DNA of 64,000 nt from Escherichia coli (GTDB lineage: Bacteria; Pseudomonadota; Gammaproteobacteria; Enterobacterales; Enterobacteriaceae): NCBI RefSeq assembly GCF_001677475.2, contig NZ_CP015229.1. One strand, written 5' to 3'. Below the pieces are notes generated by a model. That model was not told the origin of the DNA and did no database searches. It saw only the letters and a list, made by a program, of their open reading frames with translations. How positions within the stretch are numbered: the first letter of the stretch is position 1; every line of letters starts with the position of its first letter. Shown here piece by piece: positions 3,721-62,612 of the stretch. The position numbers and the translations under genes were made by a program.

Positions 3721-3796
3721 TCCTCTGTAGTTCAGTCGGTAGAACGGCGGACTGTTAATCCGTATGTCACTGGTTCGAGTCCAGTCAGAGGAGCCA
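3721..3796 (+). tRNA. asnV: tRNA-Asn (anticodon GUU)
   Basis: 76-nt sequence TCCTCTGTAGTTCAGTCGGTAGAACGGCGGACTGTTAATCCGTATGTCACTGGTTCGAGTCCAGTCAGAGGAGCCA with cloverleaf and CCA end. Confidence 0.97.
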
Positions 3797-3851: not shown

Positions 3852-4787
3852 TTAAAACATCTGTCTTGAACCAGAACTAATTTGCACAGGCATTCCCGAT
3901 CGTCGTTGCAACGCAGCATTTGCGCGATTTACATCAACTTCTTGCCCGTTGATAAACGCCCGCAAAGATGGGGTTACCGGCAATGGTACTTTTCGGTCAG
4001 ACTCATATTCTGCACGATTGCGCGACAGCGGCTCATGAACTTCCAGCCACTTTGAACCATCCGGTTCCGTTGTGTATTTCACTGGCTGATCAATAATTTG
4101 AACACGAGTACCTACAGGAACATTATCAAACAGATATTTGATATCGTCATTGCGCAGACGAATACAGCCCTGACTTACCCGGAGCCCAATACCAAAATTG
4201 GCATTGGTACCGTGGATGGCATACAACCTGCCAATATAAATCGCGTACAGCCCCATGGGATTATCGGGACCCGCAGGAACAAATGCGGGCAAACTCTCCC
4301 CTCGTTTCGCATATTCGCGCCGAGTGTTCGGCGTTGGCGTCCAGGTTGGAGCTTCTTGTTTACGTTCAACGGTAGTCACCCAGTTACGCGGGGTTTCTCG
4401 CCCAGCCTGGCCGATACCAATAGGAAAGACTTCCACAGTATTACTGTCTGGCGGGTAGTAATAAAGACGCATCTCAGCGACGTTAACCACAATCCCTTTA
4501 CGAACAGTGGCGGGCAAAATCAGTTGCTGCGGAATGGTGAGTTGTGAGCCAGACTTCGGTAAAAAAACATCAGCGCCCGGATTCGCTTCCAGCATATTAC
4601 TTAACCCTTGCCCGTATTGTGCGGCAAAAGTCTCCAGCGGCTGAGTATTGTGATTAGGAACAGTTACAGTAAGCGACTGCCCCACTAAACGGCTACCCTC
4701 TGGAGGTAATGGATAAGTTACCGCCAGGCTATTTTGGCTGGCAAAAAGCAGAGCAAATGAGCAAAGAATATTTACACGACGCATCAT
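3852..4787 (-). CDS. ldtA: L,D-transpeptidase LdtA (ErfK)
   Basis: 311 aa with signal peptide and YkuD-type L,D-transpeptidase domain, matching ErfK as I recall it. Confidence 0.9.
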
Positions 4788-4848
4788 GTCCCTTTCCTAA
4801 GTCGCGAATACTATCCGATAAGTATAGCTTTTATCAGAATTTTCGTTT

Positions 4849-5928
4849 TTAGCTGTTCAAATCAGAAGTCGTATTCCCCGGTAGAACAATATTACTGGCA
4901 GCAAGTTCGCCCATGTTGTTGTATATCGCACAAGCAGCTTCGATGATGGGCATCGCCAGAGCTGCACCACTCCCCTCACCTAAACGCATATCCATATTGA
5001 GATAAGGCTCCAGCCCCAAATGCGACAGCGCTATACGCGCGCCTTTTTCTGCCGACAAGTGAGAAGGAATGAGATACGGTTTGATTGCAGGAGACATCTG
5101 GTAGGCTGCGAGCGCAGCAGCATAAGAAAGAAATCCATCCAGCAACACAGGTAAACCGCAGGAAGCAGCGCCTAACATCACGCCAGCCATTCCGACCAAA
5201 TCAAATCCACCCACTTTTGCCAGGACATCAACGCCATCCTGAGGATTTGGTTTATTCAACGTAATCGCCCGGCGCACAACATCAATTTTATTAGCCAGTT
5301 TATCTGTCGGCAGGTTTGCGCCAATCCCAACCACTTCTTCAGGATCCCGGCCAGTGATTGTGCTGACTATTGCCGCTGCCGGTGTCGTGTTTGCCATCCC
5401 CAGTTCACCTACACCAAACAGCGTGACACCGTTTTTTGCCAGCTCCCGCGTATAACATATGACGTCCAAAAGCAACTTTTCAGCCTGACGGCGACTCATT
5501 GCCGGAGCTGAAGCAATATTGCCGCTACCTCGTGCGACACGCATGTTGATAAGCCCGGGGATAGGCTTAGCAGTATCAATACCAACATCAATTACGTGGA
5601 CGTTAGCGCCCGCTTGTGCTGCCAGCACACACACGCCGGTTGTTCCGCGGGTCATATTTTCAGCCTGAATGGCTGTCACTTCTTTTGGGGAAATAGCGAC
5701 CCCTTCCTCCCAGACGCCGTGATCGGCACACATAACCAGTACTGCTTTTTTGCCCACATGCGGTATGCCATTCAACCCCGGCATTCCCGCCAGTTGTATG
5801 GCAAGCGCCTCCAGCCTTCCCAGGCTACCAACAGGTTTGAGTAACCCGTCGATATGCCGTTGTGCACGCGACATAGCGGCAGGATCGATGGCAGGGATCG
5901 TATTCAGTAAATCGGCAAGTGTTTGCAT
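4849..5928 (-). CDS. cobT: Nicotinate-nucleotide--dimethylbenzimidazole phosphoribosyltransferase
   Basis: 359 aa CobT family ([40 protein letters not shown]...). Confidence 0.93.
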
Positions 5929-5939
5929 GTCACGTCTCT

Positions 5940-6683
5940 TTATAGCATTGCCAGCAGGAAGACCAGTTCACCTAGCTCTATGGCTGCTCCCAGCGTATCG
6001 CCGGTTTGCCCGCCCAGCGTACGTTTGAGAAGCTGACCGAGAATGAAAATCGCAGCCATCGTCAACACCATAGCAGCCACACCATGCATACCCGGCAATA
6101 ATACGGCAGCAAAAATAGCGGCTAAGCCGAGTGTGACGCAGGTTTGTCGCCCATCAATTTTGCCAATGAACACATTGCCAAGCCCTTCTTCCCGGGCATA
6201 ACGATGACGATACATCAATAATGTGGCAGTCCCGCGGCTGACCGCACATGCTGCCGCCAGCGATGCAAGGATCGGTTCGCCACGCAGAGCCAACTCGCTT
6301 AACACCAGAATCTTTGCCAGTACAACAAAAATCAAGGCCAGACCGCCGTGGGTGCCTAACCGGCTATCCCGCATGATTTCCAACATGCGTTCGCGACTAC
6401 GTGCAGAAAATACGCCATCACAGGTATCGGCGAGGCCGTCCAGGTGGAATCCCCCGGTCATCAGCGCCAGCACAAGTACGCTAAACAGTGCCGCCAGTGG
6501 TACGCCACACCATGCCTGCAGCACCATGAAGACCAGCCCGCTGATCGCGCCAAGCAATAATCCAATCAAAGGAAAAGTAATAATACCGCGAGAATAATGC
6601 TCGAAATCCAGTCCCTGGGACCAGCGACGCGGTACAGGCAGACGCGTAATAAAAGAGAGCATCGCCCAAAATAATTTACTCAT
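5940..6683 (-). CDS. cobS: Cobalamin (5'-phosphate) synthase
   Basis: Polytopic membrane protein; true start taken at [18 protein letters not shown] (tracker ORF is 12 codons longer). Confidence 0.9.
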
Positions 6684-7225
6684 TTGATTTTTACTCCAAT
6701 ACCCGAAACCACCAGCCATACTTCATTTGCCGCAGCGGCCAGCTGCTGATTTACCCGCCCGGCAATATCACGAAAATGTCGTGCCAGACGACTCTCCGGC
6801 ACAATCCCCATACCCACTTCGTTAGTCACTAATACAACCTTTGCGGGGCAACGTTGGCAGGCAGTAATCAACGACTGAATCTCAGCATTAATCGCCTGTT
6901 CCATCACCTGATAATCCCATTCATCAGGGTCTTTATCGCCGCCATAATCAAACAACAGATTAGTCACCATTGTGGTAACGCATTCCAGCAACACAGCCTC
7001 ATTCGGGTTAATGTCTGCATGAATTAATTCATCAAGATGTTGCCAGCGCTCCACTGTGCGCCAGTGCGCCGGGCGGCCTTGCCGATGATGTTCTATCCGT
7101 GCAGCCATCTCATCATCAAGGATTTGCGAGGTGGCGATATACAGAACCTGTGAAGAGTCCCCAATAAGCGCCTCTGCGTGGCGACTCTTCCCGCTCCGTG
7201 CGCCCCCCGTCACCAAAATCATCAT
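6680..7225 (-). CDS. cobU: Adenosylcobinamide kinase / adenosylcobinamide-phosphate guanylyltransferase
   Basis: 181 aa, P-loop [18 protein letters not shown]; overlaps the cobS start. Confidence 0.93.
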
Positions 7226-7358
7226 ACCGACTCCTGATTCATTTGTATGATGGTATTCATTGAACAGAACAATGGATCCCCCACCGTTGCTGACCGCAAA
7301 ACATTTACGCGATTAATACTGCGCGTAATATAATTAAAAATCCAGTATTCTCAATCCA

Positions 7359-7796
7359 TTACGAAAGAAGATGGCATTGCGGGATAGCCAGACTTCCTCG
7401 TGTTAACGTCCGACAAAATGCGTCATTGACAGCGGTTTCTCTGGCATGACAGATTTCATTCAGATAATGGATTAATGCTGCAGCCCCACCAGCCGGACCA
7501 GTCAGCAAACGGGCATTGTGTTCTGCAATCAAAATTACCGTCGTTCCCTCAGAATGAGCGAGCCATTCTGGTACAGATATCTCGCTTTCAGCTGCTATCA
7601 ATAGCAGCACTGAATAATCGCTATATGCATCTGATAACGATTGCACAGGCCCACCGTCAAAAGGCTGGAAATCTTGCTGCCAGTCCTCACCAACAAAACA
7701 GGTTATTGGCAATATTTCAGCCAGATGTTTCGCCAGGTCCACATCTCCAGATAAGAGGCAAAAAAGAGCTATCGATTCGGGTTTTATCGTTTTCAT
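7359..7796 (-). CDS. Hypothetical protein (145 aa from MKTIKPES; tracker ORF begins earlier at a GTG at 7865), function unassigned
   Basis: ORF between the cobalamin riboswitch and cobU on the same strand; GGAGGG Shine-Dalgarno 9 nt before the ATG; I cannot match it to a Cbi/Cob family. Confidence 0.45.
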   Translation of the reverse strand: MKTIKPESIALFCLLSGDVDLAKHLAEILPITCFVGEDWQQDFQPFDGGPVQSLSDAYSDYSVLLLIAAESEISVPEWLAHSEGTTVILIAEHNARLLTGPAGGAAALIHYLNEICHARETAVNDAFCRTLTRGSLAIPQCHLLS

Positions 7797-7899: not shown

Positions 7900-8170
7900 C
7901 GATGAAAGAACTAAATGATGCCGCCATACCCTGATCCTTTCAGGGTGGTAGGGGTATAAAGACGCGCCTGTACTCTACCTGACGCTTCCGGGCAACCCAC
8001 TTCCCACCGAAGTTGTTGGTATTGACTGACTGGCTGGTCTTCTGGCTTAGCGTCATCCTCACCCGACCTTCCCAATCTCGCGATCAGTGGCATTTTCGGG
8101 TTTGTCAGCATTACAGCAGCGGGGGCTGCGAGGGATTTTCACCCTCTTCCCAGGCACAAATGTGCCACAC
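7900..8170 (-). promoter_or_regulatory. Cobalamin (adenosylcobalamin) riboswitch, cob-operon leader type
   Basis: Minus strand reads ...GCCTGGGAAGAGGGTGAAAATCCCTCGCAGCCCCCGCTGCTGTAATG...GCCACTG...GGGAAGG...AAGCCAGAAGACCAGCC (B12-box) = conserved cobalamin aptamer core. Confidence 0.85.
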
Positions 8171-8277
8171 CTGTCAGCGTATGTTATGAGCTGATTTCAC
8201 TTTTCCCATAACAGGTAAATAACGTTAATTATTCATTCCAGCGTTTATTTAAACCTTCCCTTTTTTTAGCATTTACT

Positions 8278-9192: not shown

Positions 9193-9394
9193 GATAAAAC
9201 CTCCCAGTTAATTTATTGTTATAGCAAAACAATTGTTTTACATTTAATCTTCACATCATCCTTGATGATTTACTGACGAGAAGCACAAAGGACAATAACA
9301 AAAGCCTCCGTGAAGCGGGAGACTTTTTAATAAGTTCGGAAAGCAGATCACAAACAGTAAAAAAATAAACGTTTATAACTGCCAGATTATTTCG

Positions 9395-10204
9395 TTATTC
9401 GCTGATTTCTTTAGGCGTTACACTATTGACAGGTAAATTCTTTGCAATGAGATAGCGATAAATCGCCGCACCAACACATGCGCCAATGATCGGTGCAATA
9501 ATGGGTACAATGAAATAAGGAATATTGCGTCCACCAGTCATCGCAATTTCCCCCCAACCCGCAAGCCAGGTGAAAAATTTAGGTCCAAAATCACGCGCTG
9601 GATTCATGGCAAAACCGGTTAATGGTCCGGTAGAAGCACCAATAACAGCAACCAGAATACCAATTAGTAAAGGCGCAAGCGGTCCTTTGGGTACGCCATT
9701 ACCGTCATCGGTCAACGCCATAATCAACCCCATTAACATGGACGTTATGACCACTTCGACCAACGCAGCTTGCCATACATTAATCGCCGCTGCCGGATAA
9801 GTACTGAAGATACTGGCGAGTTGTAAACTTTCTGCACTACCACGCACCATATTGTGAGCAGATTCAAAATCGGTAAACAAACTGCTGTATAGAGAATATG
9901 CCAGAACCGCACCACCAAAGGCACCCGCTAATTGCGCCACACAAAATGGCAGCACTTTACGGGCTGGGAAAGAGGCAAACAGCCACAGAGCAATGGTAAC
10001 TGCCGGGTTGAGATGAGCGCCGGAAATACCTGCCGTAAGGTAAACAGCAAGCGAAATCCCTAACCCCCAAATGATACAAATTTCCCACAGTCCCAGACTT
10101 GCCCCGGCAACTTTCAGGGCGCACAAACAACCAATGCCAAAAAAGAGGAACAGTCCGGTGCCTAAAAACTCGGCAACGCATTGCGCCTTGAGTGAATCAT
10201 TCAT
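9395..10204 (-). CDS. pduF: Propanediol diffusion facilitator (MIP/aquaglyceroporin family)
   Basis: MNDSLKAQCVAEFLGTGLFLFFG...; two NPA motifs (HLNPAVT, MNPARDF); start taken at MNDSL. Confidence 0.9.
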   Translation of the reverse strand: MNDSLKAQCVAEFLGTGLFLFFGIGCLCALKVAGASLGLWEICIIWGLGISLAVYLTAGISGAHLNPAVTIALWLFASFPARKVLPFCVAQLAGAFGGAVLAYSLYSSLFTDFESAHNMVRGSAESLQLASIFSTYPAAAINVWQAALVEVVITSMLMGLIMALTDDGNGVPKGPLAPLLIGILVAVIGASTGPLTGFAMNPARDFGPKFFTWLAGWGEIAMTGGRNIPYFIVPIIAPIIGACVGAAIYRYLIAKNLPVNSVTPKEISE

Positions 10205-10716
10205 AGTGACACCTTCTTTACGGAGTTTTTCTTTATCAGCCAACTATGCGCTGATTGTTGTGTATATCGAGCGCAACTATAAAAAATTGCTCTGCAGAAA
10301 ATATTGCCAACATGCATGACAGACTCGTGTAAAAATCGTTCTAACATAGCAAATTATTGTCATTGCCGAAGCATGCAACACAGCGTTAATCAGTGTTGAA
10401 AGTAATAATTACTGTCAAACTTTCACAATAAAAAATTGTCATCATGATATAATAAAATTTAAACAAATATCACAATTCCCTTCCGCCAACCAAACCCAAC
10501 GAAATTTTATCCGCGATTAACCCCCTCAACCAACGCAATTAATTCACATTGAAACATCCACAAAATAACCAAGAAATTAATAACATATAGTTTATAAAAG
10601 CAATTTTATAATATTTGCCCTCTATTAATTTTTCTCATTAGCCGATTAAGTCAGCCATTCTTTTTCCTCGCTTTTTTTTATAGTCATATCGTCAAAAAAA
10701 TCCAGGCGAGGTCTTT
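10205..10716. promoter_or_regulatory. Divergent pduF / pduA control region
   Basis: 512-bp AT-rich intergenic region between divergent pduF and pduA with direct repeats of CAACCAA-like motifs. Confidence 0.6.
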
Positions 10717-11001
10717 ATGCAACAAGAAGCGTTAGGAATGGTAGAAACCAAAGGCTTAACTGCCGCCATAGAGGCCGCAGACGCCATGGTGAAGTCGGCA
10801 AATGTTTTGCTGGTCGGCTACGAAAAAATAGGTTCCGGGCTGGTGACAGTCATCGTTCGTGGTGATGTCGGGGCGGTAAAAGCGGCAACAGACGCAGGTG
10901 CCGCAGCTGCGCGTAACGTCGGCGAAGTAAAAGCCGTACACGTTATTCCCCGCCCACATACCGATGTCGAAAAAATCTTACCAAAGGGAATTAACCCATG
11001 A
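10717..11001 (+). CDS. pduA: Microcompartment shell protein PduA (BMC-H)
   Basis: 94 aa [30 protein letters not shown]..., matching Salmonella PduA as I recall it. Confidence 0.97.
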
Positions 11002-33378: not shown

Positions 33379-33644
33379 GGTCATTCTCCTTTACGGTGAT
33401 AACCGTCGCGTAAGCAAAAAATTGCCCCATTTTTTTGGATTCCTCAGCGACAACAACTGTCGATTTTTAGTAAATATCTATCCGGTACGAAGCCCGGCCT
33501 CTTGGTATGAATGATTGGTTTGAAGCAAAAAATAACCGACGCTGATGAAACGTCGGTTTTTAGTCATTTTTTGACAGCGGCGCATTGTGCCTAAATAGGG
33601 GGGAAATGACAAGAGAATGAGAGGCTTGTCATAATAATTTTTCT

Positions 33645-36312: not shown

Positions 36313-36363
36313 ATGACACGCGTTCAATTTAAACACCACCATCATCACCATCATCCTGACTAG
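36313..36363 (+). CDS. hisL: his operon leader peptide
   Basis: ATG ACA CGC GTT CAA TTT AAA CAC CAC CAT CAT CAC CAT CAT CCT GAC TAG = MTRVQFKHHHHHHHPD. Confidence 0.97.
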   Translation: MTRVQFKHHHHHHHPD

Positions 36364-36426
36364 TCTTTCAGGCGATGTGTGCTGGAAGACATTCAGATCT
36401 TCCAGTGGTGCATGAACGCATGAGAA

Positions 36427-36462
36427 AGCCCCCGGAAGATCATCTTCCGGGGGCTTTTTTAT
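36427..36462 (+). terminator. his attenuator (rho-independent terminator)
   Basis: AGCCCCCGGAAGATCATCTTCCGGGGGCT hairpin followed by TTTTTTATT, between hisL and hisG. Confidence 0.93.
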
Positions 36463-62573: not shown

Positions 62574-62612
62574 CACGCTACCGCCCCTGGCTTTACAGCT
62601 ACCAGAGCACTG
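62574..62612 (-). promoter_or_regulatory. JUMPstart element with ops (RfaH-dependent antitermination site) in the O-antigen operon leader
   Basis: Minus strand reads CAGTGCTCTGGTAGCTGTAAAGCCAGGGGCGGTAGCGTG; ops core GGCGGTAGCGTG. Confidence 0.9.

Follow-up and report, generated by a model that had tools for sequence, protein, structure and literature searches.

The minus strand of a 64,000-nucleotide (nt) stretch of Escherichia coli DNA (from contig NZ_CP015229.1 of assembly GCF_001677475.2; hereinafter the window) carries, just beyond the regulatory gene pocR, a cobalamin (vitamin B12) riboswitch of the adenosylcobalamin (AdoCbl) type. We found that old deletions have removed the native cob promoter block and nearly all of the cbi sequence that accompany this element in intact operons, and that the RNA itself is still under strong purifying selection. 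The best explanation, to which we assign a probability of roughly 0.55 from the sequence data, is that this is a still-functional AdoCbl riboswitch in a deletion-shrunken cob operon. Its direct target would be a pair of remnant open reading frames (ORFs), here termed cbiA' and cbiG', with the downstream genes cobU, cobS and cobT (cobUST) constituting a secondary and dispensable target.

A scan of the whole window with cmscan recovered a single cobalamin riboswitch, which spans the entire RF00174 model (positions 1-189 of 189, untruncated; 109.5 bits, E=1.6e-26; gathering threshold 31.5). This bears out the canonical minus-strand aptamer that a preliminary description of the window had proposed. 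The conserved helices and B12 box were likewise found to fold as in the consensus: 84.7% of the pair cells of the consensus helices are canonical, as against 31-47% in slid controls, and the B12 box, AAGCCAGAAGACCAGCC, is present at 8032-8048. Double-sided changes at five pairs are compensatory, the covariation score is 0.099 versus 0.066 (0 of 500 shuffles), and the motifs GCCACUG, GGGAAG and GCAGCCCCCGCUGCUGU show no variation among 16 aligned aptamers. A short helix joining 73-75 with 146-149 never pairs, and the helix mapping is probably artefactual at this point. The pocR-cbiA leaders of Salmonella and Citrobacter are 81-85% identical to the element over ~260-285 nt, with the alignment ending a few bases into cbiA, and the stop codon of pocR lies 88 nt upstream on the same strand. 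Both the position and the alignment thus agree with the assignment to the Salmonella cob (cbiA) leader made in the preliminary description, and by this comparison the element is an ortholog of that riboswitch. The interval originally delimited, 7900-8170, lacked the 19 nt at the 5' end of the aptamer and took in the rest of it, the platform at 7928-8014 and the first codons of the cbiA remnant. The RNA element as such is already known, being the ortholog of a classic riboswitch and labelled "riboswitch" at this place in the RefSeq annotation of E. coli genomes. Its parts are the following:

8182-8213, minus strand: leader hairpin (UGUUAUGGG...CUCAUAACA) directly 5' of the aptamer, homologous in alignments to a hairpin of Salmonella and Citrobacter
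8015-8189, minus strand: AdoCbl-type cobalamin riboswitch aptamer (RF00174, cmscan), including the B12 box at 8032-8048
7993-8018, minus strand: enhancer/anti-sequestor-like element CAACAACUUCGGUGGGAAGUGGGUUG, located by alignment
7943-7954, minus strand: C-rich partner of the enhancer-like element, from alignment and predicted structure
7928-7946, minus strand: ribosome-binding site (RBS) hairpin ACCCUGA-AAGGA-UCAGGGU, predicted to have 7 bp, with the cbiA Shine-Dalgarno (SD) sequence in its loop

The core of the enhancer-like element, AACAACUUCGGUGGGAAGUGGGU, is identical in 10 of 10 aligned sequences, the C-rich partner of this element and the RBS hairpin are kept in all the lineages aligned, and the platform still terminates at the cbiA start codon (7927-7925). 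By these features, a translational platform of the Salmonella type is recognizable at 7928-8018. The Salmonella enhancer element was reportedly characterized by Ravnum and Andersson in 2001 as a B12-repressed translational enhancer, with cbiA said to be under translational control. We also considered an intrinsic terminator as the expression platform and rejected it, as the single weak site (7879-7861) lies inside cbiA' and is not conserved in the other lineages.

To place the element in its genomic context we used a set of 77 loci anchored on PocR, with one genome per species. Homology to the intact operons of Salmonella, Citrobacter and Klebsiella begins with the aptamer, breaks off a few bases inside cbiA and resumes at the start of cbiG, ~6 kb further on. 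Three deletions are discernible: the first removed the cob promoter/control block (~250 nt), with ~200 nt of the 5' leader; the second extends from codon ~16 of cbiA to near the end of cbiF; and the third from codon ~135 of cbiG through cbiP. The same three-deletion architecture is seen in seven divergent Escherichia lineages with 85-90% nucleotide identity, whose source names include E. whittamii, E. marmotae and E. albertii. Since the junctions are shared across ~15% nucleotide divergence, the deletions are old and were either inherited or spread as a unit. Hence, the preliminary description was correct in that the cbi operon is gone, with no intact cbi gene between pocR and cobU. Only the 44-codon cbiA' and the 145-codon cbiG' are left of the corrin-ring genes cbiA-cbiP that the riboswitch would ordinarily control. 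The deletion of the native cob promoter block had been missed in that account. Similarly, cobU, cobS and cobT do follow the ORF at 7359-7796 as it stated; the ORF itself, which was left unassigned there, is the N-terminal part of CbiG and is preceded by cbiA':

7927-7793, minus strand: cbiA' leader ORF, 44 codons (tblastn with CbiA, E=2e-5 to 4e-5)
7359-7796, minus strand: cbiG' ORF, 145 amino acids, a remnant of the CbiG N-terminal domain with a novel tail of ~10 amino acids (NF004463)

In cbiA', ~15 codons homologous to CbiA (MAASFSSFIAVPTGT versus MAARHHAFILAGTGS) are followed by a decayed junction and presumed sequence from the end of cbiF, and its TGA overlaps the ATG of cbiG' (ATGA). A clean in-frame cbiA'-'cbiF fusion was also considered and rejected. 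Where the operon is intact, the end of cbiF, with its native stop, runs ~20 nt into cbiG in a different frame, so that cbiA' is a decayed chimera rather than such a fusion; the similarity of 7883-7823 to the cbiF end is, moreover, too weak. The cbiG' product matches only positions 1-126 of the 351 positions of the NF004463 profile, at 75 bits against a cutoff of 546, and is thus not a full-length CbiG. Its homology reaches to about residue 135, with 33-41% identity to intact CbiG N-termini and a 7-residue internal deletion relative to them, and its conserved blocks are those of the conserved core of the intact N-termini. A structure modelled with AlphaFold (AF2) is of moderate confidence (predicted local distance difference test score, pLDDT, 72.5), and its best PDB match in Foldseek is the N-terminal part of the CbiG homolog 3eeq (TMq 0.52, with a weak E-value).

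Evidence for continued function of the RNA comes from the pattern of divergence among 13 sequences from ~7 Escherichia lineages with the deleted operon. The mean pairwise Jukes-Cantor distance is 0.056 in the aptamer and 0.057 in the platform; the corresponding values are 0.170 in the pocR-to-aptamer spacer, 0.196 in cbiA', 0.175 in cbiG' and 0.135 in the cbiG'-cobU spacer. Synonymous divergence (dS) is 0.29-0.53 in the neighbouring genes and 0.38-0.60 in pocR. The aptamer and platform accordingly evolve three times slower than the remnants and five to nine times slower than synonymous sites. The ratio of the aptamer rate to pocR dS is 0.11 in the deleted lineages versus 0.24 in the intact-operon species, and the Rfam scores lie between 105 and 113 bits in all 13 copies from the deleted lineages and between 97 and 112.5 in the intact ones. 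Indels are absent from the aptamer, platform and cbiA', and none in cbiG' shifts the frame; the spacers carry indels of 1, 5 and 11 nt. Thus, the aptamer and platform are under purifying selection that is at least as strong as in species with the intact operon. An overlapping 66-codon ORF (7911-8111) was examined as a possible cause of this conservation and rejected, given that it has stops in 10 of the 13 sequences and that variable sites are spread as 11, 12 and 13 over the three codon positions.

The two ORFs have also been maintained. In 13 of 13 sequences cbiA' has exactly 44 codons and retains the ATGA overlap. The cbiG' frame is open for 144-145 codons in 12 of 13 and for 136 codons in one E. 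coli sublineage (L085, proteins P0005-P0011), where a stop occurs nine codons early in the non-homologous tail. In a neutral simulation on a star tree, which somewhat overstates independence, the probability of cbiG' staying open in four lineages is ~0.003 and that for cbiA' is 0.11. The ratio of nonsynonymous to synonymous divergence (dN/dS) of cbiG' is 0.26-0.61, significantly below 1 in most pairs (Fisher p down to 1e-6); that of the neighbouring functional genes is 0.04-0.15. The sequence of cbiA' evolves in a near-neutral fashion, with a ratio of nonsynonymous to synonymous polymorphism (pN/pS) of 0.66, but it has remained open, and it therefore looks like a leader ORF that is kept for being translated.

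The locus of E. albertii (L082, named by its source; 3935-5400) bears on the relationship between the switch and cobUST. Here five or more disabling indels, which include loss of the P-loop region, have turned cobU into a pseudogene, and cobT has been deleted; the aptamer scores 112.8 bits with 0 unique substitutions at 175 sites, and both ORFs are intact. As the switch and the ORFs have stayed intact without cobU and cobT, the conserved target is most likely cbiA'-cbiG'. The idea of the preliminary description that the switch gates the ORF downstream of it has indirect backing in the purifying selection, the placement of the platform on the cbiA start and the invariant length and overlap of cbiA'. 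Its further suggestion of a gate on cobUST is possible, and such a gate is neither necessary nor sufficient to explain the retention of the switch. Besides the broken cobU of E. albertii, it is confronted by a promoter-like site belonging to cobU itself, by the occurrence of cobUST without the switch in most E. coli, and by the lack of a Rho-utilization (rut) signature or terminator in the intervening sequence. As a separate observation, cobS of E. albertii is intact and has a dS of 1.0-1.3 yet an omega of 0.03, and thus stands as a lone constrained gene at this locus. The downstream features in the window are:

7327-7354, minus strand: promoter-like site TTGAGA-16-TATATT upstream of cobU, with 10 of 12 consensus matches, in a region kept in K-12-type genomes, which do not have the riboswitch
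6680-7225, minus strand: cobU, adenosylcobinamide kinase/guanylyltransferase (NF004469, 246.8 bits)
5940-6683, minus strand: cobS, cobalamin synthase, whose start overlaps the cobU stop (TIGR00317, 301.6 bits)
4849-5928, minus strand: cobT, nicotinate mononucleotide (NaMN):5,6-dimethylbenzimidazole (DMB) phosphoribosyltransferase (NF000996, 470.8 bits)

The cobT gene of the window shows only 89.8% identity to that of L001 (E. coli WEM25), as against 97-98% for the flanking cobS, cobU and pocR, so that cobT may be a divergent allele or contain a patch acquired by recombination.

The upstream side of the locus bears on how the leader might be transcribed. It comprises:

8190-8277, minus strand: pocR-to-aptamer spacer of 88 nt, from alignment with Salmonella, Citrobacter, Klebsiella and L036
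8278-9192, minus strand: pocR, AraC-type regulator of the pdu/cob regulon (NF047788 TransRegPocR, 553.8 bits versus a cutoff of 500)
9395-10243, minus strand: pduF (NCBIfam)

The pdu operon is divergent from these genes and starts at ~10717. Every intact-operon relative has a strongly conserved block of ~230-260 nt after the pocR stop, which is missing in the window and its Escherichia relatives. In Salmonella diarizonae the sole forward promoter-like site, TTGTCA-16-TAAAAT (L013, 11000-11027), lies inside that block and would yield a leader of ~475 nt, in agreement with the ~468 nt of the Salmonella cob leader. At the present locus, where the spacer is 88 nt, the element has neither its own PocR-dependent cob promoter nor a leader of ~470 nt. 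A new sigma-70 promoter in the spacer was looked for and rejected: there is none at 8 or more of 12 matches, and the only relaxed match is inside pocR. Because no consensus-grade promoter or terminator was found between the pocR stop and the aptamer, read-through from pocR is probably the simplest source of transcription for the riboswitch. Immediately beyond the pocR stop, the intact-operon species have a conserved palindrome, TAGCAATATTTTGCTATTGCC, followed by ATTTTTG (L013, ~10900-10945). It has been lost in Escherichia and might serve either to bind a protein or to terminate pocR weakly. A match to the small RNA STnc230 (9253-9336, plus strand, 76.3 bits) lies between pduF and pocR, in the opposite orientation to the two genes; all the Escherichia, Salmonella, Citrobacter and Klebsiella loci scanned have it at this position.

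From these features we infer the following mode of action. The leader would be transcribed mainly by read-through from pocR and would hence be induced by propanediol via PocR. Binding of AdoCbl would close the RBS hairpin, leaving cbiA' untranslated and, by translational coupling, cbiG' as well. The ribosome-free RNA may then be more exposed to Rho-dependent termination or decay, resulting in less read-through into cobUST, which would additionally be served by their own promoter. In this way, the ancestral logic of a propanediol-induced and B12-repressed unit might have been kept with different wiring.

Several observations weigh against this proposal. The promoter gap between pocR and the aptamer is itself one of them. 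The locus offers no conserved intrinsic terminator, and no C-rich/G-poor rut signature is present in 7927-7226: the C/G ratio is 0.65-1.16 in 78-nt windows across 7927-7359, unlike the btuB-type composition of the first 80-210 nt of the ORF. The cbiG' ORF has its own conserved GGAGG, and a structure predicted by RNAalifold to occlude its SD and AUG is at most weakly suggested, as it is no stabler than in shuffled sequences (z from 0.08 to -1.33) and is devoid of covariation; the argument for coupling of cbiA' and cbiG' is consequently reduced to the ATGA overlap. With regard to the cbiG' product, a dN/dS of ~0.45 amounts to weak constraint, the CbiG motifs GATGIAVR and SGHAGGAN are replaced by AAESEIS and TGPAGGAA, and its sequence has no match in Pfam, PDB sequences or PADLOC. 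The E. albertii locus is mosaic, so branch rates are only roughly comparable between its segments. Finally, RNA-seq of E. coli LF82 exposed to bile salts showed a decrease of cobUST in reads per kilobase per million (RPKM) with an increase of pdu (PMC6379400), in an experiment where B12 was constant and in a strain whose arrangement at this locus is unconfirmed.

A more far-reaching version of the above interpretation, which we put forward tentatively, is that cbiG' encodes a small protein that Escherichia has domesticated within its propanediol/B12 economy, for instance in a corrinoid-handling or regulatory role, and that would be repressed by AdoCbl via the re-plumbed switch, with cbiA' acting as a coupling leader. 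If this were true, the regulator of an operon and two of its gene fragments would have been exapted into a new B12-responsive unit after the loss of the pathway.

Alternatively, the switch might be kept only to gate cobUST, with cbiA' and cbiG' being translated spacers that carry the decision via Rho polarity and whose products are functionless. We regard this as doubtful. It is in keeping with the well-established position of cobUST as the distal genes of the riboswitch-controlled Salmonella cob operon, with the open state of both ORFs and their ATGA overlap, with the near-neutral evolution of cbiA' (pN/pS 0.66), and with the absence of a terminator from the switch to cobU; there is also a precedent for translation-coupled Rho termination in btuB (PMC11162775). 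However, it sits poorly with E. albertii, which keeps the aptamer at 112.8 bits and the ORFs despite its broken cobU and deleted cobT, and a pure spacer is not expected to have a dN/dS below 1 or the fold-patterned conservation seen in cbiG'. Furthermore, cobU is equipped with a promoter-like site of its own, cobUST are present without the switch in the majority of E. coli, and rut-like composition was not found downstream.

It is unlikely that the switch acts instead on pocR, as a ligand-responsive 3' untranslated region (UTR) of the pduF-pocR transcript that tunes the 3' end or stability of pocR, and thereby pdu, in response to B12. The aptamer lies 88 nt past the end of pocR and neither a promoter nor a terminator signal intervenes, which is consistent with this, as is the persistence of the switch in E. 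albertii without cobU and cobT. Such control would matter to an organism unable to make B12, and control of pocR or eut regulators by B12 riboswitches does exist in Listeria and Enterococcus. The switch and pocR/pdu are always found together in Escherichia (641-644 genomes and 13 of 13 loci), but this might reflect mere physical linkage over 88 nt. A role as a pocR 3' UTR leaves the RBS hairpin, the cbiA' start and its 44-codon frame, the ATGA overlap and the conservation of the cbiG' frame unexplained, and the expected polarity, with B12 lowering downstream transcription, has no obvious benefit for pocR. Lastly, a non-functional relic, whose apparent conservation would stem from its young age, from recombination at the locus, from a cold spot for mutation or from an overlapping ORF, is very improbable. 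The loss of the cbi genes and the cob promoter and the mosaic nature of the locus (cobT at 89.8% versus 97-98% in its neighbours; E. albertii cobS with dS >1) would be compatible with it, but the slowly evolving stretch has precisely the extent of the aptamer and platform and lies between fast flanks (0.170 in the spacer and 0.196 in cbiA'). No lineage has a reduced covariance-model score, stops interrupt the overlapping 66-codon ORF in 10 of 13 sequences, and the common junctions across ~15% nucleotide divergence mark the deletions as old.

The distribution of the locus throws light on its history. The pocR-switch-cbiG'-cobU arrangement is present in 641-644 of 5426 complete E. coli genomes (~12%), and the leader is of full length in 643 of 644 E. 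coli copies. The sole truncated leader, in NZ_CP019245.1 (E. coli Combat13F7, H95), comprises the 3' 45% of the query and stands beside a gene for an ATP:cob(I)alamin adenosyltransferase. DNA resembling cbiA-D was found in none of the 5426 genomes. K-12-type genomes retain only the 3' part of cbiG', with an adjoining insertion sequence, IS5; in another class of E. coli a pduV pseudogene is fused to cbiG'; and Shigella dysenteriae has IS1 at this place. These three states are secondary losses from an ancestor that resembled the window. The region upstream of cobU (7200-7530) is a rearrangement hot spot, with E. coli matches ending at query positions 1602, 1771, 1816, 1822, 1888, 1936 and 1948.

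A few individual loci deserve separate mention. Escherichia sp. MOD1-EC7003 (L036) has an intact cob operon, whose leader and CbiG are like those of Klebsiella (L031) and unlike the Escherichia remnant, which points to horizontal acquisition or misnaming. The metagenome-assembled genome (MAG) 'Citrobacter sp. HRGM_Genome_0066' has two pocR loci (L002 and L016), one of them 99% E. coli-like, and a Streptomyces assembly (L064) includes a 383-nt contig 98% identical to this PocR; both cases are probably due to bin chimerism or contamination. Elsewhere in the window, Rfam matches were obtained for a His leader (36339-36462, plus strand), STnc240 (33525-33599, minus strand), JUMPstart (62574-62612, minus strand) and a tRNA (3721-3793, plus strand), the last at a place corresponding to an annotated tRNA-Asn in E. 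coli genomes. The his operon of the window is 98-98.6% identical to that of E. coli, in line with an origin from this species or a very close relative.

The presence of a riboswitch is ordinarily taken as a sign of the pathway that it controls. In the present case the pathway and the native promoter are gone and the sensor is conserved no less strictly than in B12-making species, making this a natural example of a regulatory RNA that has outlived its operon and been re-used beyond it. In the searchable literature we found no description of the strict conservation of this switch after the loss of its promoter and pathway, of the conserved remnant ORFs, or of the independence from cobUST seen in E. 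albertii. The locus also constitutes direct sequence evidence that the ancestor of Escherichia possessed a pdu-pocR-cob locus like that of Salmonella, which deletions have since eroded, and this bears on the old 'loss and reacquisition' debate on enteric B12 synthesis. The pdu-positive adherent-invasive E. coli strains are discussed in the context of Crohn's disease, and a B12-responsive element beside pocR could influence the coupling of propanediol use to the availability of B12 or cobinamide in the gut. If cbiG' is functional, it would represent an unrecognised member of the B12 regulon that is currently annotated as a 'hypothetical protein'.

Among known systems, the closest is the Salmonella enterica cob (cbiA) leader, an AdoCbl riboswitch on which Richter-Dahlfors, Ravnum and Andersson reportedly worked. 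The two share the locus after pocR, 81-85% identity from the aptamer to the cbiA start, the enhancer-like core, the RBS hairpin with the SD in its loop, and cobUST downstream on the same strand. In contrast to Salmonella, the window has lost the promoter block with ~200 nt of the 5' leader, its cbiA-cbiP genes have shrunk to cbiA' (44 codons) and cbiG' (145 codons), and transcription would likely proceed by read-through from pocR. The cobUST operon of E. coli K-12, said to have been described by Lawrence and Roth in 1995 (J Bacteriol 177:6371), consists of the same genes and has the 133-nt upstream region with the promoter-like site and the 3' part of cbiG' (~92% identity). Unlike the locus studied here, K-12 is without pdu, pocR, the riboswitch, cbiA' and the 5' half of cbiG', and IS5 abuts the remnant. 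Listeria monocytogenes AspocR and the EutX/Rli55 elements of Enterococcus and Listeria are B12 riboswitches that drive non-coding antisense or sponge RNAs. The present element is comparable to AspocR in that a B12 riboswitch adjoins pocR and the Pdu pathway is B12-dependent, with B12 sensing being tied to pdu/eut regulation. It differs from AspocR in that the aptamer shares the minus strand with pocR, so that its transcript is not antisense to pocR, and from AspocR and Rli55 alike in having a translational platform, which covers a start codon and precedes conserved ORFs. In the AdoCbl riboswitch of E. coli btuB, repression of translation is followed by Rho-dependent termination inside the untranslated ORF (PMC11162775). 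It and the present element share their Rfam family and the group of organisms in which they occur, and both have a translational platform that sequesters the RBS. The btuB riboswitch, however, stands at another locus and is not orthologous, and the early part of its ORF is C-rich and G-poor, a signature not seen here. Moreover, whereas btuB is a full-length functional gene, the first cistrons behind the riboswitch in the window are the remnants of genes.

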